A program made the position numbers and the translations under genes. Below the pieces are notes generated by a model. The model made no database searches. It was not told where the DNA came from and saw only the letters and a list, made by a program, of their open reading frames with translations. This document shows, piece after piece, positions 5,989 through 57,636 of a DNA stretch of 64,000 nt. Numbering within the stretch: position 1 is the stretch's first letter; each line of letters begins with the position of its first letter. Origin of the DNA: Pseudomonadota bacterium (GTDB lineage: Bacteria; Chloroflexota; Ktedonobacteria; Ktedonobacterales; JADMIN01); the NCBI GenBank assembly GCA_021324535.1, contig JAJPIU010000240.1, forward strand, positions 6,745-70,744, written 5' to 3'.

Positions 5989-7153
5989 ATGTTTTGTCCA
6001 AACTGCGGGCGTACGCTTCCGCATAATGACTTTACCCAATGTCCATCCTGTGGCGCCCCGCTGACGCCTCCCGTAGCCAACGCGCCAGCTGGCAGCGACC
6101 TTGAGCTTCCCCAGCGCCCATCCCCCTATGCCGAGACAGCGCTTTCGCAGCAGGGACAAGCATCCCAACAGTTTCAAACGCCACACGGCCAGCAAACACA
6201 CATCATGCCATTAGCAGCAGGGGGATATGGGCAATCCCAACAACCACAGCAGCAATGGATAGCACTACCGCAACCGGCCATGTCACCGAACGCAGCGTAT
6301 CCGCAGCAGGCGCAGTATCCGCCTATGGGTGGCTATGGGTATCCACAGCAACCTGCGCCTGTGTACTTTACACCCGTGGCGCCTGTCTATTCCCAGCCGC
6401 CAAACTACGCGCCGCCGGGCTATCCGCTGATGTATCAGCCACAGCAGTCGCCACAACCGCCACGCAGACGCGCTTCGACGCCAATTATCATAGGCAGCGT
6501 CATCGCGATCCTGGTTTTACTGATCGTCACTGTGCTGGGTGTATTTGCCCTCAGAAACGGCTTTGTCCCAGGGTTTACCAACTTACACCAGGGGGCATAA
6601 CACGCCGCAGCCGACCGCGACTCCCAGTGGCACGGTCTTCTTCCAGGATCCGCTGACCTCCAACACACACTACTGGCTGGTGCTTGGCGGCTATTGCTTT
6701 TTCGCAAATGGTAGCTATCACATCGAGAACAATTATATTTGTTTTGCGCCAGCCGGTGATCCTGGGCCAAATTATACCGTCTCGGTGGATGTCAAAGAGG
6801 TTAACGGCTTCGACGATTATCCTTTTGGGCTGAGTCTGCGTATTGCCGCCCCGAACAATGTCTTTGAACACTATGACTTCGGCATTGATAGTCTGGGCGA
6901 GTGGGTGTTTTACAAGGTAAATGGGAGCAATGCCACTAAGCTTCACGGCTATACTGCGAACGAAGCGATCAATCAGGGAAATGATGTCAACAACACGCTG
7001 AAGGTGGTCGTGCGAGGATCAACCTACACGTGCTATGTGAACAACACATTGGTTGGAACCGTGTATGACGCAACATTTACCTCAGGCAAGGTAGGGCTGT
7101 TTAGCAACAAGTACGAGGCGGCCTTCAACAATTTGCTGATTACCCAGCCTTAG
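5989..7153 (+). pseudogene. Frameshifted paralog of the 2917..4338 zinc-ribbon / P-Q-rich / TM / ConA-like protein
   Basis: Track ORFs 5989..6600 (zinc ribbon, P/Q linker, TM) and 6539..7153 (ectodomain) lie in frames 1 and 2. Both align colinearly to the intact paralog. The frames join if one G is removed from the G5 run at 6591..6595. Confidence 0.75.
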
Positions 7154-50238: not shown

Positions 50239-51177
50239 TCACCGATGATACGATGGCGTGGGGGTCGCGCCTGTCGTATATGAGCCGCCGTTGGCGTTGG
50301 GTGGTAGCACGTAGACCCAGACCTGATCCTGCTCCACCTTCGTCCTGATGGCTGGCAGCGGGCTGTAGCGAATGGGCGAAGATGCCGCCGCCTTGCCGTC
50401 CTCAGTGAAGCGGCCACCGTGGCAAGGACAATCGAAGGTGCGCGCGGAGACGTTCCAGTTCAGGAAGCAACTCATATGTGTGCAGACGCCTGAGAGCGCC
50501 GAAAAGCCTTCCTCTGTGTGGCGGATGAACCCCACGATGTAGTTGGTCTGGAAGCGATGTACCTTGCCCAACGGGATCGCGCTGACCGGCGCGACCGCCA
50601 CCCAGACGCCCTCACCCTCCGGCACGAGCGCCTGTGATGGTGGGGATGATGGGCCGTTAGGTTGGCTGGCATGTTCCAATGCAGCGCCCACTGCGCCACC
50701 AACGACCGCAGCGGCAGCCGCGCCCAATCCGCCTGCCAGCAGTCCACGCCGCGAGACGCCACCCTCGCCGTTGCGCTGCTTACGCGGGCGGCTCACGCGC
50801 CTGGCGCGCGGGTCGGTGGTATGCAGGCGCAAGGGAAGCGGCGCCTCATCGTGTTCATCCGCCGGTTTCGTGGCTGGCGCGCCCTCGCTCTGGCTTGCGG
50901 GGAGTTGCGCCAATAAGCGGTTGAGAAACGCCGGATTGGGATCGGCTGCGCCAGGGGCGGCCGCACGGAACAGCGCAGCCATAGGGTAGGCGTCCGCCTC
51001 ATCCGTTGAGGAAAGCAATGGGGCGTTGGGACGGCGCTCCATACGCAGGCGCTCGATGTACGTGTTGAGTTGCTCGGCGCGGGCCATCTCGGCTTCCTGT
51101 TCCGCCGGATTTGTTGGCTCAGGGTACTCCTCGTATTCGCCAGGCGAGGGGGAGTGATGATTTTCCCAGTTGCTCAT
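50239..51177 (-). CDS. Membrane-anchored Rieske [2Fe-2S] domain protein, candidate anti-sigma factor
   Basis: About 140-aa acidic/Pro-rich N-terminus, Tat-like SRRGLLAGGLGAAAAAVVGG anchor, and a C-terminal Rieske domain with CTHMSC...CPCHG. ATGA overlap with the upstream sigma gene. Confidence 0.8.
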   Translation of the reverse strand: MSNWENHHSPSPGEYEEYPEPTNPAEQEAEMARAEQLNTYIERLRMERRPNAPLLSSTDEADAYPMAALFRAAAPGAADPNPAFLNRLLAQLPASQSEGAPATKPADEHDEAPLPLRLHTTDPRARRVSRPRKQRNGEGGVSRRGLLAGGLGAAAAAVVGGAVGAALEHASQPNGPSSPPSQALVPEGEGVWVAVAPVSAIPLGKVHRFQTNYIVGFIRHTEEGFSALSGVCTHMSCFLNWNVSARTFDCPCHGGRFTEDGKAAASSPIRYSPLPAIRTKVEQDQVWVYVLPPNANGGSYTTGATPTPSYHR

Positions 51178-51905
51178 TGCGCACTCTCCCTGTGTGTTAG
51201 CCCCGCTGGCTGGCTCTGTGCATGCTGGGCAGTGGATGATGTCCGTGACGATTGCGTGCTTTGCGCGATCTGGTTAGCCTTTTTGAGCGCACGAAACTGA
51301 AGCACCTTGATGTTTGCCTCGCTCAGGTTCATCCGTGCGGCGGTCTCCTTCAACGAATAGTTCAGCAAAAACCGGCAGGTCAACACCTCGCGATAGCGCG
51401 GGGGCAAGGCCGCCAGAATCTCTTGCGCCAGCGCCTCGGCGGGGGTCATGCGTTCCCCAACCTCTGGCGTATATGAGAGCGCCGCCCTGATGTTAGCCCT
51501 TTCCATCGCTTGCGCCGATTGCATGGCGGGAACTGTCGCCAATGGCGCGCCTTCCGGCCCAATAGGAGCGCCTCGACCGATCTCGCCAGATTCCGTCAGC
51601 GCCGCCAGGTCGTCGTCGGTTGAAGGGCCTTCCCAGCCCGCTTCCAGCAGATCGTCGAGCGAACGCGCATGCAGGCGATAAAACGCGCGCCAATGATCGG
51701 CGACTGTTGTGCGCGCCACTTGAAAAAGCCAGTTCTGAATGGTCTGCGGGTCACGCTCTTGGTCAAGGTCGCGCAGCGCCTTCAGGAAGACCTGCGAGGT
51801 GAGGTCTTCGGCTTCTTCGCGGTTGCCCACTTTACTATAGATGAAGCGATAGATCGCCGTCAGATGTGTTTCATAGACCGCGCGCAGACGCTGGTCGTCC
51901 GACAT
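51174..51905 (-). CDS. Sigma-70 family factor (ECF-like sigma-2/sigma-4 with an ~85-aa linker)
   Basis: IYRFIYSKVGNREEAEDLTSQVFLKAL...WLFQVARTTVADHWR (sigma-2) and PPRYREVLTCRFLLNYSLKETAARMNLSEANIKVLQFRALKKA (sigma-4). I prefer the start MSDDQRL at 51905. Confidence 0.8.
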   Translation of the reverse strand: MSDDQRLRAVYETHLTAIYRFIYSKVGNREEAEDLTSQVFLKALRDLDQERDPQTIQNWLFQVARTTVADHWRAFYRLHARSLDDLLEAGWEGPSTDDDLAALTESGEIGRGAPIGPEGAPLATVPAMQSAQAMERANIRAALSYTPEVGERMTPAEALAQEILAALPPRYREVLTCRFLLNYSLKETAARMNLSEANIKVLQFRALKKANQIAQSTQSSRTSSTAQHAQSQPAGLTHRESAQ

Positions 51906-52142
51906 GAATGCCTCGCGATTGCTTCGGCGACTTGTGCGCCGTGCTTCCTGGAAAGCCATCTTTGGTTGGGCGTATACTCCGACAAAAAGAGGCGCCTGCA
52001 GAACATACGCTTGCAGGTTACGGCGTTTGCGGATATGATAGCACAATAGTCGCTTTATCTTCCTTTACCCTCTTGCTTGCGCTTCACGGTTGAATGGCGC
52101 ATTGGCGCTCATGCAGGTGTGTCGTTTTCTCGGAGGGGATAT

Positions 52143-53156
52143 ATGCCTGGCCTGACCACCATCCTTGTGATTGTCGTCGCAGTTGTCATCATCGTTGTTG
52201 TTCTTCTGGCGTTGGCGCTCTGGTGGGTCTTGCGCACACGCCACCGGTTGCGTGAGGCTTCGCGCGAGGGGCGGCGTGTCTCGGCGCAGGTCACGCAGAA
52301 TCCGGTGACGAGCTTCAGCCGCAATGGACTTCCCAGCGATCCGCTGAATGTCAAGCTGATCGGCACATCCGGCCAGCTTGGCGCCGCCTTCGCTGAGGCG
52401 GGCTGGTATCGCGCCGACGAGATTGATTTCGTGACCTCCGTGCGCATCAGTGTTGATTCGATCCTCGGACGCAAGTACAGCACAGCGCCCGTCAGCAGTC
52501 TTTTCTTGTTTGGTCGGAAAGAAGACTTCGCCTTCGAGCGTCCAGGCTCTTCGGTGCGCCAGCGCGACCATGTGCGCCTGTGGAACACTGGTACGCCCGC
52601 TACTGATGGGCGGCCGGTCTGGATCGGCGGAGCGACACACGACATCGCGGTAGAAATCTCGCATGTGACACATCTGCCCACCCATAAGATCGCGCCCGAT
52701 GTGGATGACGAGCGCACATCGCTGATGGATAGCATCATTGAGGCAGGCTGGGTGATTGACGAGGGCTGGGAACCGGGCTTTGGCAAGCCAACAGTGCAGC
52801 GCAACTCGCTTGGCGATACCTATCACACCGACGGGCGGCGCGCAGTGCTGACTCTGGCGGATGTCTTCACGCTGACACCCATCGCCACCCAAGTGCGCGG
52901 GCGCTGGGGACTACGGCTGGCGCAGGCGCTTGGGGGACTGCTCCGTCGCCGCCTGCCTGAAGAAGGCAAACGGCGGGCAAAGGCGCATCGCGAGGCGAGA
53001 CTTGCCAGCCAACAGGGACACCCTGCGCAAGCCACGCCTGCAACCGAAGAGCCGACTCAACTGCAAGAGGCGGCAGAAGCCCAGGCTACTCCCACACCTG
53101 CGCCTGTCGCTTCGGTTCCCCCGGCTGCTTCGGAGCCACCCACGGCAACCGAATGA
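52143..53156 (+). CDS. LssY-like C-terminal domain membrane protein
   Basis: N-terminal TM helix (ILVIVVAVVIIVVVLLALALWWVL), then a domain with DPLNV...GW...HVRLW...ATHD resembling the LssY_C family. ATG at 52143 (GGAGGGG upstream). Confidence 0.65.
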   Translation: MPGLTTILVIVVAVVIIVVVLLALALWWVLRTRHRLREASREGRRVSAQVTQNPVTSFSRNGLPSDPLNVKLIGTSGQLGAAFAEAGWYRADEIDFVTSVRISVDSILGRKYSTAPVSSLFLFGRKEDFAFERPGSSVRQRDHVRLWNTGTPATDGRPVWIGGATHDIAVEISHVTHLPTHKIAPDVDDERTSLMDSIIEAGWVIDEGWEPGFGKPTVQRNSLGDTYHTDGRRAVLTLADVFTLTPIATQVRGRWGLRLAQALGGLLRRRLPEEGKRRAKAHREARLASQQGHPAQATPATEEPTQLQEAAEAQATPTPAPVASVPPAASEPPTATE

Positions 53157-54556
53157 TGAATGCGTCGAATGGGTCAGGGCAGGGAGGTGGTATGGCATAC
53201 ACGGGGGAGCGAAGCGTGCATCCTGGCCATCCTGGCATTCCTGTGCCCACGCTTGCCGCTGGCTGGCGTGCATTCCAGGCATTGAGGCGGCACAGGCATA
53301 TTCTGGGAGCGTTAGCCGCCTTGCATGAGGAATTGGGCGATGTCTTCCGGCTGCCTCTTCCTGGGTTTGATGGCGTCTTTCTCGTAGGGCCAGAAGCCAA
53401 CAGGTTTGTTCTGACCGAAGAGCGCGCGAACTTTCGCTGGCGCGCGGAGGCTGATCCTGTTACCCATCTGCTTCGCCATGGACTTCTTGTCGAAGATGGC
53501 CCCGCGCATGATGCGGCGCGGAGCCTCATGGCTCCTGCGCTTCATAAAACCATGCTCGCCAGCTATGTCAGCCAGATGCAACGGCGCGCCGATCAGGTCA
53601 TCGCGAACTGGGCGGATGGCGACCGTGTGGATATGCTGGTGGAGATGCGGCGCATCGCGTTGCTCATCCTTATGGACACCTTGTTTGCAGAAGACTTTGA
53701 TCCCGAGTTGAAGGCGCTCTGGCCTGCCATTCTGCGTACCCTTCGCTTTATCTCGCCGGGCGCGTGGCTCGTGTGGCCGGGGATTCCCCGCCCCGGCTAC
53801 CGGGAAGCGTTGCGGCGAATGGATCAGTATTTCTATCAATTGATTGCTCTACGGCGCGGCCAGCAAGGCGTTGACTCAAAGACAAACAATCTGCTCGATA
53901 CGTTGATCGCGTCCGGTATGAGCGATGACCTCATTCGTGACCAACTGTTTACCTTATTCATCGCCGGGCACGACACCAGTACCGCCCAGCTCGCCTGGAG
54001 CCTCTATCTCCTCTCGACCCATCAGGACATCCTGGCGCGTGTGCGCGCGGAACTCGATAGCGCGTTGGGGAAGGCAGGATGTGAAGAGGATGCGGCTGGC
54101 CCGACGCTGACGCAGCTCAAGCAACTGAGCTACCTGGATGGCGTGTTGAAGGAAACGCTACGGCTGTATCCGCCGATTCACCTTGGCTCACGCATCGCAG
54201 CGACCGATCTCACGTTCCAGGGCTACTTTATTCCGGCAAGAACGCGCGTGCTGTACTCCATCTACCTGACCCATCGGCAAAAGAGGTATTGGCCCACGCC
54301 GGATCGTTTCGAGCCGGATCGCTTCATCGGTGAACACGCCGGACAGCGCCCTGCCTATGCGTATACGCCATTTGGCGGCGGCCCGCGCAACTGCATCGGG
54401 GCCTCTTTCGCTCAACTTGAAGCGAAGGTTGTGCTGGCGCGTATCCTTCAGCGATTCGATCTTCGCTTCGTTGGCGGCGCAGCGCCATCCCCGCGCATGC
54501 GCGCCACCCTTGAACCATCGCCAGGTGTGTATGTCCAGGTACGGCGTCGGCCATAG
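53153..54556 (+). CDS. Cytochrome P450
   Basis: I-helix FIAGHDTS, ExxR (ETLRLYPP) and heme loop FGGGPRNCIGASFA. ATGA overlap with the LssY-like gene. Confidence 0.9.
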   Translation: MMNASNGSGQGGGMAYTGERSVHPGHPGIPVPTLAAGWRAFQALRRHRHILGALAALHEELGDVFRLPLPGFDGVFLVGPEANRFVLTEERANFRWRAEADPVTHLLRHGLLVEDGPAHDAARSLMAPALHKTMLASYVSQMQRRADQVIANWADGDRVDMLVEMRRIALLILMDTLFAEDFDPELKALWPAILRTLRFISPGAWLVWPGIPRPGYREALRRMDQYFYQLIALRRGQQGVDSKTNNLLDTLIASGMSDDLIRDQLFTLFIAGHDTSTAQLAWSLYLLSTHQDILARVRAELDSALGKAGCEEDAAGPTLTQLKQLSYLDGVLKETLRLYPPIHLGSRIAATDLTFQGYFIPARTRVLYSIYLTHRQKRYWPTPDRFEPDRFIGEHAGQRPAYAYTPFGGGPRNCIGASFAQLEAKVVLARILQRFDLRFVGGAAPSPRMRATLEPSPGVYVQVRRRP

Positions 54557-54575
54557 CCGTTCACGCTTGCTCACT

Positions 54576-55793
54576 TCAATGCGGATAGAGCCGCCCCTTC
54601 CATTCGCTCTTGCCTTTCCGCCATCGCCGAGAGAGCGCACCAAGCCCAATCGCCAGAACGCCCCAGGCCGCCAGCGGCGTTGTGAGCACCTCATTGAGCG
54701 GCCTCTTCAGGTGGCGCGCGACAATGGCGCGGAGCACGCCAAGCCAGAAGATCTCACCCGCTGCCATCCATCTGTGCTTCCCAAAAGCCAGGCGCCAGAA
54801 TGGGATGATGAATAGACAGACGTAGCCCCAGGCGAAGAGGGGAGCGCGCCAGGCGGTTCGCCAGAACGGGCGCTCGCTTGGCGAGGACAACGAGAGCGCC
54901 GCCAGCAGGTTCTTTGAGAATCCTTCCCACACAGCGCGCGGCGAGGAATACATGCGGCAACTGAGCATCCCCGCGCCATCCGCCAGCGCGATACGATACC
55001 CCTGATCGCGGAATTGCCCCGCAAGAGCAAAATCATCCACCAGCGCACTTCGAATACTGGCGTGCCCACCTGTCGCCCGATAGGCAGCGGCCTGCGTGAG
55101 CAGATATTGTCCGTTGGCGGCCACCCGCGTCTGTTTGTTTGTCCCGCGCCAGATGGCCCCAAAATCAAGTCCAATGAGCGGCAGAAAGTCAAGAATGAAC
55201 GATACCATCAACCGCTCGCTCCAGGTGTTCGTCTGCTGGTAGGGAAACGCACTCAGAAAAGCCACATCGAGGGCCGACGCCAGCCCGATGCCACGCGCGA
55301 CGCTGTGAGCGGTATGCAGCGTATCGGCGTCGGTAAAGAGCAGCCACTCGCCATGCGCCAGTTCGGCAAGGCGCTGGCAGGCGTAACTTTTGCCGTTCCA
55401 TCCAGGTGGCGGATCGGCATCGCTATGGATGACGCGAAAAGCATAAGGTTGTGGATACTGCGCATACTGTAGCACGAGTCTGTCGAGTCGCTCGCTCGTG
55501 CCATCAGTTGATCCGTCATCCAGGACGATCACTTCCAGGCAGGGATAGTCTTGGCTCAGAAGCGAGGTGAGGCAAGCGGTGATCGTCGCAGCCTCGTTGC
55601 GCGCCGGTACCAGGACGCTGACCAGCGGTACAGACGTTGCCTTGTCCGTCGCCCGCCGATTGGCCCAACGAAGAAAGCGAAGGTTGGCGCAAAGGCGGTT
55701 GGTAAGATGCGCTAAGAGCGCCAGGCTGGTAAGATGTGCTCCTAGCTCGAAAGAGAGGCGGAGCAGGCGCCATAGTCGCCAGATACCCATCAT
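54576..55793 (-). CDS. Family 2 glycosyltransferase (candidate carotenoid glycosyltransferase by context)
   Basis: VSVLVPARNEAATI...VIVLDDGSTDGT...FTDADT GT-A motifs plus C-terminal TM helices. ATGA overlap with the upstream PlsY-like gene. Confidence 0.8.
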   Translation of the reverse strand: MMGIWRLWRLLRLSFELGAHLTSLALLAHLTNRLCANLRFLRWANRRATDKATSVPLVSVLVPARNEAATITACLTSLLSQDYPCLEVIVLDDGSTDGTSERLDRLVLQYAQYPQPYAFRVIHSDADPPPGWNGKSYACQRLAELAHGEWLLFTDADTLHTAHSVARGIGLASALDVAFLSAFPYQQTNTWSERLMVSFILDFLPLIGLDFGAIWRGTNKQTRVAANGQYLLTQAAAYRATGGHASIRSALVDDFALAGQFRDQGYRIALADGAGMLSCRMYSSPRAVWEGFSKNLLAALSLSSPSERPFWRTAWRAPLFAWGYVCLFIIPFWRLAFGKHRWMAAGEIFWLGVLRAIVARHLKRPLNEVLTTPLAAWGVLAIGLGALSRRWRKGKSEWKGRLYPH

Positions 55794-56398
55794 GCCACTT
55801 CCCTCTGGCTGTTTTGCCGGGATTGAGCAGGCGGGTGAAGATAAAACGCGCCGATTTTGAGCATCAAGACGAACAACTGCGCAGCCGCCAGCCAGATCAT
55901 CCAGCTCGCAGCGCCCGTAACGAACAGAAAGGCAATGAGGCCAAGCGGGATCGCCAGCGTCCGGTAGTCATCTTTCTTGAAAAGCACGAACGCGAGCAGC
56001 CCAATCACGCCCATCACCAGAGGAATCCGATAGAGCGTTAGCCCCGTCCAGACGCCAAACATTGCGACGATGCCGCGCCCGCCCCGGAAGAGCAGGAAGA
56101 CAGAAAACGCATGCCCAATGGTCGGAGCCAGCGCAATCCAAAAGAGCTGGATGGGGGGAAATCCCCCCTTCCAGGCAGCCAGCGCAACGGGGAGGAAGGC
56201 TTTGAGAAAATCCAGGATGAGCACACCAGCGCCCAGGCGCCAGCCGACCGCACGAAACGCATTGGCCGTTCCCGGATTGCCATCCGCCTGTGCGCGGGGA
56301 TCAACATGAAAGAAAAGTTTTCCCAGCCAGACTGCCCACGGCAATGCTCCCGAAAGATAGGCGCTGAGCAGCCAGAAGATGAAGCGAACGCTGAACAT
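55790..56398 (-). CDS. PlsY-family (G3P acyltransferase family) membrane acyltransferase
   Basis: YLSGALPWAVWLGKL, DGNPGTANAF, LDFLKAF and IGHAFSVFLLFRGGRG are PlsY-type motifs with several substitutions. Confidence 0.75.
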   Translation of the reverse strand: MFSVRFIFWLLSAYLSGALPWAVWLGKLFFHVDPRAQADGNPGTANAFRAVGWRLGAGVLILDFLKAFLPVALAAWKGGFPPIQLFWIALAPTIGHAFSVFLLFRGGRGIVAMFGVWTGLTLYRIPLVMGVIGLLAFVLFKKDDYRTLAIPLGLIAFLFVTGAASWMIWLAAAQLFVLMLKIGAFYLHPPAQSRQNSQREVA

Positions 56399-56404
56399 AT
56401 AGGG

Positions 56405-57487
56405 CTAATCCCCCTCTGCATTCAAAGCATTGAGATCGAGCAGGAGCCGATGAATCCTGGCGTAGCCTTCATCGAGCGTTTGCCCCAGCAGTATACCGGG
56501 AATCTGCTCGGCAAGCAGCGGGTTTTCTGTGAAGGCACGACCACCATAGCCAACGAGCGGCAGTTGTGGCGCCGATTGCCCAGGTTTCCTGTGGTTTGCG
56601 TTCTCCGGCTCCTGTGGCAGCCAATGAGGCCAACCCATCAGGGCAAGCGCCGTCTCCTCACTCATTGCAACAAAGACGATGAGCGCTGGCTCAACCGTGC
56701 GCGCCACGGTGGCGAGATCGGACAACGGGAGCAATTGTCCCAAATACACAACGGGCCAGCGTCGTTGCCGCAATACTGCTCCCAAAATCAGCAGGCTTCC
56801 TTCGTGCAGTTCGCCAGGCGCACACCCCAGGACAACCGGAGACACACGATAAGCTGGCGGACTCGCGCGCATCATGCTGAGCAAATGATGACGCAAGAAA
56901 TTTGTGGCAAAGTGTTCGGTTGTAATGTCGACATCTCCCGCGCGCCAGGCGTCACCAATCGCTGAGAGCGTCGGACGAATCATCTCAAGGATCACAGTTT
57001 CCTTTGGATAGCGCCGTGGCGCCTCTTCGAGCAGTGTGGTGGCCCCTGTACTATCGTAGGCCAGCAACAACTCATACAGACGTCGCTGCTCTGACGCTAG
57101 TTCGGCAGCCTGAGAGGAGTCCACCCGGAGAGAAGAGGAGAGCGGTAAAGCCATCTGGAAGGTAGTGGCGACTGCCGCAGCGCGTGGTACCTGATGAAGG
57201 GCTGCAATGGCCTGGCTGGCGCGCATCCCTTCCTCCAGACGCAGCTTGACCCATTGCAACTGAATCACCATCTGCTGGGAATAGAGGCGATGTCTGCCTG
57301 CGCTACGAACAGCCTGAGGAAAACTGTAGCGCCGCTCCCAGGCTCGCAGCGTCGCCTCAGACACATGCGTGATCTCTGCGACCGAACCGATAGGAAAGAG
57401 CAGGTCGGTTTCCTGAAGAACACGCATGACTTCCCAGGCTGGTTTGCTCATGATAGGCGCCTTTGGAGAACTAGAGAGTTCGAACAT
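56405..57487 (-). CDS. MerR-family regulator with a C-terminal B12-binding domain (LitR/CarH-type light-responsive repressor)
   Basis: N-terminal MerR HTH (IGSVAEITHVSEATLRAWERRYSFPQ...GRHRLYS). C-terminal cobalamin-binding signature GELHEGSL (E/DxHxxG) with VVYLG. The start may be 57451 instead. Confidence 0.85.
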   Translation of the reverse strand: MFELSSSPKAPIMSKPAWEVMRVLQETDLLFPIGSVAEITHVSEATLRAWERRYSFPQAVRSAGRHRLYSQQMVIQLQWVKLRLEEGMRASQAIAALHQVPRAAAVATTFQMALPLSSSLRVDSSQAAELASEQRRLYELLLAYDSTGATTLLEEAPRRYPKETVILEMIRPTLSAIGDAWRAGDVDITTEHFATNFLRHHLLSMMRASPPAYRVSPVVLGCAPGELHEGSLLILGAVLRQRRWPVVYLGQLLPLSDLATVARTVEPALIVFVAMSEETALALMGWPHWLPQEPENANHRKPGQSAPQLPLVGYGGRAFTENPLLAEQIPGILLGQTLDEGYARIHRLLLDLNALNAEGD

Positions 57488-57591
57488 TGCAAGATAAAGA
57501 TGAGGTAGCCGTCATCTCACCACAGGATCACCAGTGTCGTCCTCTGAAGTGTATCGCTGACCGGGCGATTTGTCCAATTATTTAGCAAAAA

Positions 57592-57636
57592 AACCTGGAC
57601 ATACTATTGACAATGACCAAACAAAGCACTTACAAT
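57592..57636 (+). promoter_or_regulatory. crtB promoter (TTGACA 57607..57612, N18, TACAAT 57631..57636) overlapped by four 11-bp-phased ACA repeats, a candidate LitR/CarH operator
   Basis: ACA triplets lie at 57599, 57610, 57621 and 57632, exactly 11 bp apart. The first repeat, AACCTGGACAT, fits nAnnTnnACAn. Confidence 0.6.

Follow-up and report, generated by a model that had tools for sequence, protein, structure and literature searches.

Can an iron-sulfur protein of the Rieske type act as the membrane regulator of a sigma factor of the extracytoplasmic function (ECF) type? The question is raised by two overlapping genes in a 64,000-nucleotide stretch of DNA from a member of the Ktedonobacterales (Chloroflexota; GenBank assembly GCA_021324535.1, contig JAJPIU010000240.1, positions 6,745 to 70,744 of the forward strand), which is referred to below as the window. 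The upstream gene encodes an ECF sigma factor, and the downstream gene encodes a membrane Rieske [2Fe-2S] protein that would be exported by the twin-arginine translocation (Tat) pathway. Pairs of an ECF sigma factor and its anti-sigma factor rank with the most common signalling devices of bacteria, but few of these pairs have a known signal. An earlier note on this DNA had described the two genes as a candidate redox-sensing sigma/anti-sigma pair and had connected them with the nearby carotenoid (crt) cluster. The analysis described here favors, with a probability of roughly 0.55, a self-contained module of a sigma factor and its single-pass regulator, with a Tat-exported Rieske domain as the sensor and with the crt genes adjacent by chance. 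The features on which the argument turns are collected in Table 1.

Table 1. Features of the sigma-Rieske locus, with positions counted from the first letter of the window
Feature	Position	Strand	Remarks
ECF sigma gene	51174..51905	minus	243 aa, stop included; ATG 51905, TGA 51176..51174
ATGA overlap of sigma stop and Rieske-gene start	51174..51177	minus	direct reading; downstream ATG 51177..51175
Upstream element GTAACCTGCAAGCGTA	52006..52021	minus	family consensus YGTAAC-N7-CGTA
Membrane Rieske protein gene, candidate anti-sigma factor	50239..51177	minus	312 aa
Conserved N-terminal domain, proposed to bind sigma	50890..51108	minus	aa 24-96, core YxMAALFRAAAPGAxxPxPxFxxxLxxxL
Twin-arginine motif S142-R-R-G-L-L147	50737..50754	minus	R143 and R144 invariant, S142 nearly so
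Ala/Gly-rich hydrophobic segment	50677..50745	minus	aa 145-167
Rieske [2Fe-2S] domain, predicted extracytoplasmic	50308..50610	minus	aa 190-290, minimal bc/b6f type
Rieske box I C232-T-H-M-S-C237	50467-50484	minus	
Rieske box II C250-P-C-H253-G-G-R-F	50419-50430	minus	

The sigma and Rieske genes recur as an adjacent pair

Related loci were collected from three homologues of the Rieske protein on long contigs and from a metagenome scan, seeded with the alignment of the N-terminal region, which added 60 more. An ECF sigma gene lay directly upstream of each of the first three homologues, in surroundings that differed each time. By tblastn, an ortholog of the window sigma factor (43-61% identity) was found directly upstream and on the same strand in all 63 testable loci, and it was missing only from three loci in which the contig ends within 100 bp at that point. 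Three deep-branching loci also carry the sigma gene upstream, with overlaps of 4 or 11 bases, which brings the adjacency to 66 of 66 testable loci (about 30 of them non-redundant). Across the diverse alignment A4, deep members included, identity to the N-terminal domain of the window protein falls to 22-36%. The spacing between the two genes varies, from an overlap up to a gap of about +110 bp. A contig scan with the full-length alignment picked up generic Rieske boxes, and the matches listed comprised L001, which is a relative, and 79 Rieske loci that belong to other phyla and are unrelated to the family; these 79 served as a negative control, and a homolog of the window sigma factor was found near none of them.

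A comparison of 19 non-redundant loci, each 5 kb or longer, showed that the only shared genes were those for the sigma factor (19/19) and the Rieske protein (18/19). None of the neighbouring genes of the relatives was found in the window, and the neighbours in the window are likewise not shared by the relatives. These results confirmed that the pairing is not a matter of chance, as it recurs in every related locus, and the two genes behave as a module independent of their surroundings. A same-strand neighbour of the sigma gene, in the place where ECF systems encode the cognate regulator, was present at every testable locus. The earlier note had suggested that co-occurrence across genomes be checked, and the outcome, together with the recurrent overlap and the single-pass topology described below, supports its proposal of a candidate sigma/anti-sigma pair.

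The next commonest neighbour among the 19 loci, in 7 of them, is a gene for a YtkA-like or FixH-like membrane protein, which lies 3' of the Rieske gene in the same orientation. It was located at 6041-6544 in locus L084 and at 9562-10206 in L126, and it is also present in L109, L114, L123, L127 and L134. A cupredoxin gene (6158-6469) occupies the corresponding position in L146.

A BldN-like sigma factor overlaps the Rieske gene

The sigma factor has a Sigma70_r2 domain (aa 11-74), a Sigma70_r4_2 domain (aa 161-209) and no further Pfam domain, the sigma2 and sigma4 domains alone being the mark of an ECF (group IV) member of the sigma-70 family. It scored 77.8 bits against the NCBIfam ECF superfamily model TIGR02937, for which the cut-off is 42.9. 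The best NCBIfam family was the BldN family, with a score of 103 bits that is below its cut-off of 206 bits, and the nearest solved chain was again BldN (6dxo_A, E 3.2e-17; next best 2.7e-07). From its sequence, the product is predicted to be a BldN-like ECF sigma factor. A public protein collection contains products identical to those of both genes, the sigma factor there also having 243 residues.

The minus-strand letters at the junction of the two genes are GTGCGCAATGAGCAACTGG, and the overlap of the sigma stop codon with the ATG of the next gene, reported in the earlier note, was confirmed by direct reading. The same 4-base start/stop overlap occurs in L092, L093, L146 and L147. We read the ATGA overlap as translational coupling of the sigma and Rieske-protein genes, a reading that would fix the proportion of the two products.

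The sigma factors of the family vary outside their two domains. In the alignment with relatives, an insertion of about 50 residues in the sigma2-sigma4 linker (approximately aa 88-160 of the window sigma factor) is found in the window sigma factor and its closest relatives, those of L092 and L093, and a low-complexity C-terminal tail (approximately aa 212-243) is found in the window sigma factor and that of L093. The motif SLDDLLxAGWEGP, immediately after sigma2, is conserved across all sigma factors of the family. In an AT-richer clade (L109, L131, L121, L114, L134 and L142), the sigma start seems to lie about 32 codons further upstream, at GTG GGT ACG CTG preceded by GGAG, and the added residues read VGTL...SQFAAAGRN...RFPxGEEG. 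The resulting conserved N-terminal extension has no counterpart in the window sigma factor.

The Rieske protein joins a conserved N-terminal domain to a twin-arginine segment and a Rieske domain

The earlier note had described a protein with an N-terminus of about 140 residues, an SRRGLL motif, a hydrophobic segment and a complete Rieske domain. All of these were seen in the 312-residue product, in the order N-terminal region, basic stretch with VSRRGLL, hydrophobic segment and Rieske domain. Since the domains, the overlap and the motifs were all found again, the observation had been correct in every particular.

The N-terminal region contains no cysteine in residues 1-140 and hence no HxxxCxxC zinc motif of the ZAS type. 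In the alignments its conserved block has the consensus ExYxxLHxHIExLRADxRP ... AYQMAALFRAAAPGAxxPDPxFxxxLxxRL, after which a variable linker leads to the invariant arginine pair. AlphaFold2, run with 119 sequences, predicted helices at residues 24-45, 58-72 and 82-96 with a predicted local distance difference test (pLDDT) score of 76-88, and the domain modelled alone with 54 diverse sequences reached a mean pLDDT of 84. The strongly basic stretch before the twin-arginine motif (RARRVSRPRKQRNGEGG) is consistent with a cytoplasmic location of the N-terminal region. Pfam DUF7739 was weakly matched by 4 of the 54 N-terminal domains (best E 2e-4) and may be a remote relative.

With the Rieske protein as query, a large protein collection yielded 422 matches. 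The 120 homologues among the matches listed all have the same architecture, with about 250-350 residues and most of the query covered, and those with names, again among the matches listed, come from Ktedonobacterales metagenome-assembled genomes. They are called 'Rieske (2Fe-2S) protein', 'ubiquinol-cytochrome c reductase iron-sulfur subunit' or 'cytochrome b6-f complex iron-sulfur subunit' in the databases. A profile of the N-terminal domain matched 331 clusters among 1.84 billion representatives, 127 of them at E <1e-10. Every full-length match carries the CTHxGC and CPCH boxes, and the shorter ones are contig-end fragments or frameshifted reads; therefore, fusions to a Rieske domain are the only setting in which the N-terminal domain is known. 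Five members of 207-245 residues (P0203, P0224, P0241, P0148 and P0221) have lost the Rieske boxes by apparent frameshifts. Their out-of-frame letters still echo the motif region, which points to sequencing errors or pseudogenes.

R143 and R144 of the twin-arginine motif are invariant among 119 homologues. The motif has the form expected of a Tat signal, S/T-R-R followed by any residue and two hydrophobic ones, and a mildly hydrophobic h-region comes after it; the letters that follow VSRRGLL147 are GGLGAAAAAVVGGAVGAAL. The Pfam TAT_signal model was reached by 7 of 119 members and, at its cut-off, by P0203, and the only matches of the N-terminal profile in the PDB were Tat signal peptides, aligned through the arginine pair and the h-region. 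A Tat signal normally stands at the N-terminus of the precursor, and here the motif begins at residue 142, after a folded conserved domain. Internal twin-arginine motifs are otherwise known only from actinobacterial QcrA. Beyond the hydrophobic segment the consensus is AAGAxxER, which contains a small-x-small motif (AAGA followed by xxER). The segment may serve as a Tat signal-anchor, or it may be the h-region of a signal that is cut off; AlphaFold2 gave it a pLDDT below 50 and predicted no helix, and the linker was likewise modelled with low confidence.

The Rieske domain was matched by Pfam at aa 192-265 (E 1.5e-10) and was modelled with a pLDDT of 93-98. Its invariant residues are C232, H234, C237, C250, C252 and H253, that is, the cluster ligands and the disulfide cysteines. 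With both boxes, the two extra cysteines and the Rieske fold, it has the hallmarks of the bc1/b6f type, and its best Foldseek matches were the soluble domain of the Chlorobaculum Rieske protein (8hn2_A, E 1.5e-10), kuste4569, PetC3 (5cxm) and PetC of the b6f complex. The C-terminal tail past this domain (50239-50310) is variable and rich in Pro, Ser and Thr, and it has a nearly invariant terminal Tyr, which is Y310 in the window; homologues end in ...GGY.. or ..SYHR.

A conserved element lies upstream of the operon

Upstream of the sigma gene, on the coding strand, the element YGTAAC-N7-CGTA was found in 23 of 27 non-redundant relatives. Among the deep branches, L147 has the exact form, L148 has a spacer of N6 and L146 has CCTA. 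The element occurs as a single exact match in the 64 kb of the window, where 0.21 would be expected. YGTAAC is the -35 sequence of BldN promoters (CGTAAC-N16-CGTTGA; PMC2375139) and of the ECF40 sigD/ShbA promoters (PMC12019637, PMC6338062). GTAAC is thus a likely -35 of the operon promoter, and a -35 of the BldN type fits a BldN-like sigma factor that would read its own promoter. The earlier note had called for a search for such a promoter; upstream of position 51905 the element is a candidate for it, and no such element was found before the crt or P450 genes.

Autoregulation of the sigma factor through the element is likely on this evidence. It is not established, because the CGTA block is unexplained and lies inside the expected spacer. 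At a spacing of N16, we found only a weak YG (CGATGA in L083, CTGTTGA in L147 and TGCAGG in the window). The element can be read equally well as a direct repeat, YGTA-N9-CGTA. Enumeration of bipartite k-mers with spacers of 14-19 nt gave nothing above shuffled sequences, the short-spaced element having been seen by direct reading. Across 443 kb of loci the element has few further copies, no more than chance would give; for this reason, no regulon genes are named here.

The carotenoid neighbourhood is not conserved

The earlier note had also linked the pair to carotenogenesis, from which it is separated by a short divergent region. The distance of about 240 bp that it gave to the LssY-P450 genes holds for the first ATG of the LssY open reading frame (237 bp from the sigma ATG at 51905, to 52143) and not for the listed TTG start, which is 171 bp away (52077). 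The pair is divergent from LssY-P450, LitR is about 4.5 kb away and crtB 5.8 kb away, an arrangement that invites comparison with LitS or CarQ/CarR and would make the pair a light- or redox-regulated branch of carotenogenesis acting on the adjacent LssY-P450/LitR/crt genes. A P450 gene that lies divergently upstream of the pair in L146 could be taken in the same sense; it is the sole P450 beside a relative, and its product is only 23% identical to the one in the window. However, no LssY, orthologous P450, GT2, PlsY, LitR or CrtB gene was found in any of 65 related loci, and no copy of the upstream element was present near crtB and the other crt genes, LitR, P450 or LssY, even with one mismatch allowed.

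The spacer between LitR and crtB (57548-57636) contains a near-consensus promoter of the sigma-70 type, TTGACA-18-TACAAT, at 57607-57636 (11/12 matches), about 87 nt upstream of crtB, and a weaker divergent promoter, TGGACA-17-TACACT (9/12), that points toward the LitR-like MerR/B12 gene. Such a layout would be expected if LitR exerts direct control together with the housekeeping sigma factor, with no part for an ECF sigma factor. We rejected the carotenoid-regulator reading, which appears very improbable, on the grounds that there is no conserved linkage, no shared cis-element and a promoter of the housekeeping type before crtB. The position of the pair beside the LitR/crt cluster is best read as a coincidence of gene order rather than a functional association.

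A proposed mechanism for the sigma-Rieske pair

Taken together, the co-occurrence, the coupling, the helical cytoplasmic domain and the single hydrophobic segment with an outer domain agree with the usual grounds for assigning ECF anti-sigma factors; for these reasons we take the Rieske protein to be the cognate membrane regulator of the sigma factor, and we infer that the N-terminal domain binds sigma. For an ECF sigma factor without another adjacent regulator, the next gene usually encodes its anti-sigma factor, according to the ECF reclassification study (Casas-Pastor et al. 2021, PMC7826278). The system is therefore probably a variant of the ECF sigma/anti-sigma arrangement, with the Tat-exported Rieske domain as its sensor.

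In the mechanism we propose, translational coupling would produce the sigma factor and its regulator in fixed proportion, and the three-helix N-terminal domain (aa ~24-96) would keep the sigma factor inactive at the membrane. SRRGLL and the Ala/Gly-rich segment would form an internal Tat signal-anchor, to judge from the motif, and Tat would carry the Rieske [2Fe-2S] domain, already folded and with its cluster in place, to the outer side of the membrane. A Rieske domain receives its cluster in the cytoplasm, and one that works outside is exported in folded form by Tat, as in bc1, b6f and actinobacterial QcrA; the proposal of Tat export rests on the twin-arginine motif and on this rule that extracytoplasmic Rieske domains are Tat substrates. 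The input would be whether the cluster is oxidised or reduced, has been damaged or was never put in; its state may alter how stable the regulator is or which conformation it takes, and so free the sigma factor, most likely by proteolysis, as for other membrane anti-sigma factors. Free sigma factor would then transcribe its own operon from the YGTAAC -35 promoter, plus a further regulon. Box II has Gly and Phe (CPCHG-G-R-F) in place of the Ser and Tyr of bc1, two residues that raise the potential according to bc1 mutagenesis, and by analogy this suggests a cluster of lower potential. Such a cluster would fit a menaquinone pool, which we take to be that of this group.

Several observations weigh against this mechanism. 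The earlier note had proposed to look for an anti-sigma domain in the N-terminal region, and none was detected: no Pfam or NCBIfam anti-sigma family matched this domain in the window protein or in 54 members, apart from a single member at E 0.034. PDB sequences searched with profiles gave no anti-sigma match, and Foldseek found no PDB fold, anti-sigma domains included, for the N-terminal model. The hydrophobic segment, poorly modelled as it is, could be a cleavable signal rather than an anchor. The CGTA block stands 7 nt after GTAAC rather than at 16-17 nt, which is not the canonical ECF geometry. The YtkA-like and cupredoxin genes downstream of the pair in relatives, absent from the window, hint at a copper or electron-transfer theme, and the Rieske domain could be a working electron carrier rather than a sensor.

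These points bear on two other roles for the protein. It could be a working extracytoplasmic electron carrier, quinol-oxidising or copper-linked and with its partners elsewhere, that is co-expressed with the sigma factor or is its main target; the N-terminal domain would then serve assembly, through Tat proofreading or the docking of a chaperone or cytoplasmic partner, and not sigma inhibition. A complete bc/b6f-type Rieske domain with disulfide cysteines, whose best structural matches are respiratory or photosynthetic, is what one would expect of such a carrier, as are the YtkA-like genes in 7 of 19 non-redundant loci, the cupredoxin in L146 and the lack of a detectable anti-sigma signature. 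A carrier of this kind does not readily account for a strict 66/66 adjacency to one sigma lineage, with recurrent overlap, across deep divergence and changing neighbours, nor for an N-terminal domain that never occurs without Rieske and a pair that never occurs without sigma, and the usual position of an anti-sigma gene cited above also speaks against it. No cytochrome b gene was found near any locus: a cytochrome b6 probe gave no tblastn match at E <1, either in the window or among the 69 related loci searched. On this result we rejected a respiratory bc/b6f operon. Partner genes could lie elsewhere in the genome, and a respiratory subunit of that sort is a case in which the earlier note would have been wrong. 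Electron transport as the main function is unlikely, but it has a real chance of being right.

The other role would tie the sigma factor to export. The first ~165 residues would be a giant Tat signal peptide that bears an anti-sigma domain, and the sigma factor would be released in one of two ways: by export and a signal-peptidase cut (...AGA before xxER) followed by degradation of the stub, or, when the cluster is not loaded, by Tat proofreading that rejects the precursor and leads to its degradation. By either route, sigma activity would report Fe-S assembly or Tat flux rather than an external redox signal. An Ala/Gly-rich h-region without a stable helix, the conserved small-x-small motif after it and PDB matches confined to cleaved Tat signal peptides agree with such a checkpoint; in addition, signal peptidase is reported to be the site-1 protease of the anti-sigma factor RsiP (PMC8844934), and a FeS_assembly_P gene is close to the pair in several relatives. 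That neighbourhood, however, is local synteny of the Ktedonobacterales and is absent from the window, and the Rieske proteins of bc1 and b6f keep similar Ala/Gly-rich Tat anchors uncleaved, as is well established. We consider a checkpoint of this form quite unlikely. More doubtful still is the fuller proposal that release of sigma depends on both [2Fe-2S] loading and Tat passage, by cleavage or by proofreading rejection, in a logic comparable to FlgM secretion but applied to the biogenesis and export of an Fe-S protein.

Comparison with known sigma-regulator systems

The closest known system is the class III pair RsbN-BldN of Streptomyces venezuelae (6DXO), as BldN is the nearest solved relative of the window sigma factor and the BldN -35 sequence CGTAAC resembles the YGTAAC conserved here. 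RsbN is a single-pass protein with a cytoplasmic three-helix domain of about 117 residues that is unlike other anti-sigma factors (PMC6101532), and the Rieske protein of the window has the same topology. However, its N-terminal domain has no sequence or Foldseek similarity to any PDB chain, 6DXO included. RsbN, for its part, has a 272-residue outer domain of another kind than Rieske and lacks a twin-arginine motif. BldN governs the chaplin and rodlin genes in Actinobacteria, whereas the present family belongs to the Ktedonobacterales.

Class I anti-sigma factors (RseA, RsiW, RskA and RslA) are likewise encoded just downstream of their ECF sigma genes, often with translational coupling, and likewise combine a cytoplasmic N-terminal helical domain, one membrane segment and an extracytoplasmic sensor; their sigma factors are released by regulated proteolysis. 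The window protein differs from them in having no zf-HC2 or RskA-type match, no HxxxCxxC and no Cys in its first 140 residues, three rather than four predicted helices, predicted insertion by Tat rather than Sec, and a metal-cluster domain as the putative sensor. With the Rieske subunits of bc1 and b6f and with the stand-alone proteins 8HN2, Synechocystis PetC3 (5CXM) and Kuenenia kuste4569 (9RK4), it shares the minimal fold, CTHxGC...CPCHG with the disulfide cysteines, and a twin-arginine motif ahead of an Ala/Gly-rich hydrophobic segment; it differs from them in its conserved extension of about 140 residues, predicted to be cytoplasmic, before the arginine pair and in having a sigma factor, not cytochrome b, as its partner.

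A redox-active cofactor or thiols that gate an alternative sigma factor are also known from zinc-binding RsrA and ChrR and, presumably, from RsmA of Streptomyces, which we take to be a kinase-like anti-sigma factor that contains a [2Fe-2S] cluster. These sensors are cytoplasmic and unrelated in sequence, whereas the cluster of the present protein would sit outside, on a Tat-exported domain. What the present pair has in common with the carotenogenesis systems, LitS with LitR of Streptomyces and CarQ/CarR of Myxococcus, is that genes for an ECF sigma factor and a putative membrane regulator lie near LitR and crt, and this in the present genome only. It differs from those systems in its non-conserved adjacency, the absence of a shared cis-element and the housekeeping-type promoter of crtB.

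Full-text searches of a literature library found no description of a Rieske-type anti-sigma factor, in agreement with the statement of the earlier note that none was known, and the main text of the ECF reclassification paper (PMC7826278) makes no mention of Rieske or Chloroflexi. The unusual features of the family would be three: an anti-sigma domain that is not recognised as such, a topology predicted to depend on Tat, and an extracytoplasmic iron-sulfur domain as sensor. If the proposed mechanism is true, the protein would be a first among anti-sigma factors in two ways, in having an iron-sulfur sensor at the outer side of the membrane and in its predicted dependence on Tat, and its N-terminal domain would be of an anti-sigma type unseen by current profile libraries. 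Annotators should leave about 330 protein clusters out of the count of respiratory Rieske subunits. The cluster also offers experimental handles (electron paramagnetic resonance, midpoint potential and ligand mutants) on the path from redox or assembly state to transcription.

Neighbouring operons

Start/stop overlaps of 4 bases also occur between the LssY and P450 genes at 53153-53156 and between the PlsY-like and GT2 genes at 55790-55793, the latter downstream of LitR and on the minus strand. These overlaps point to two operons in the region 52077-57487, LssY-P450 and LitR-PlsY-GT2, the second of which may serve the formation of carotenoid glycosides or esters.

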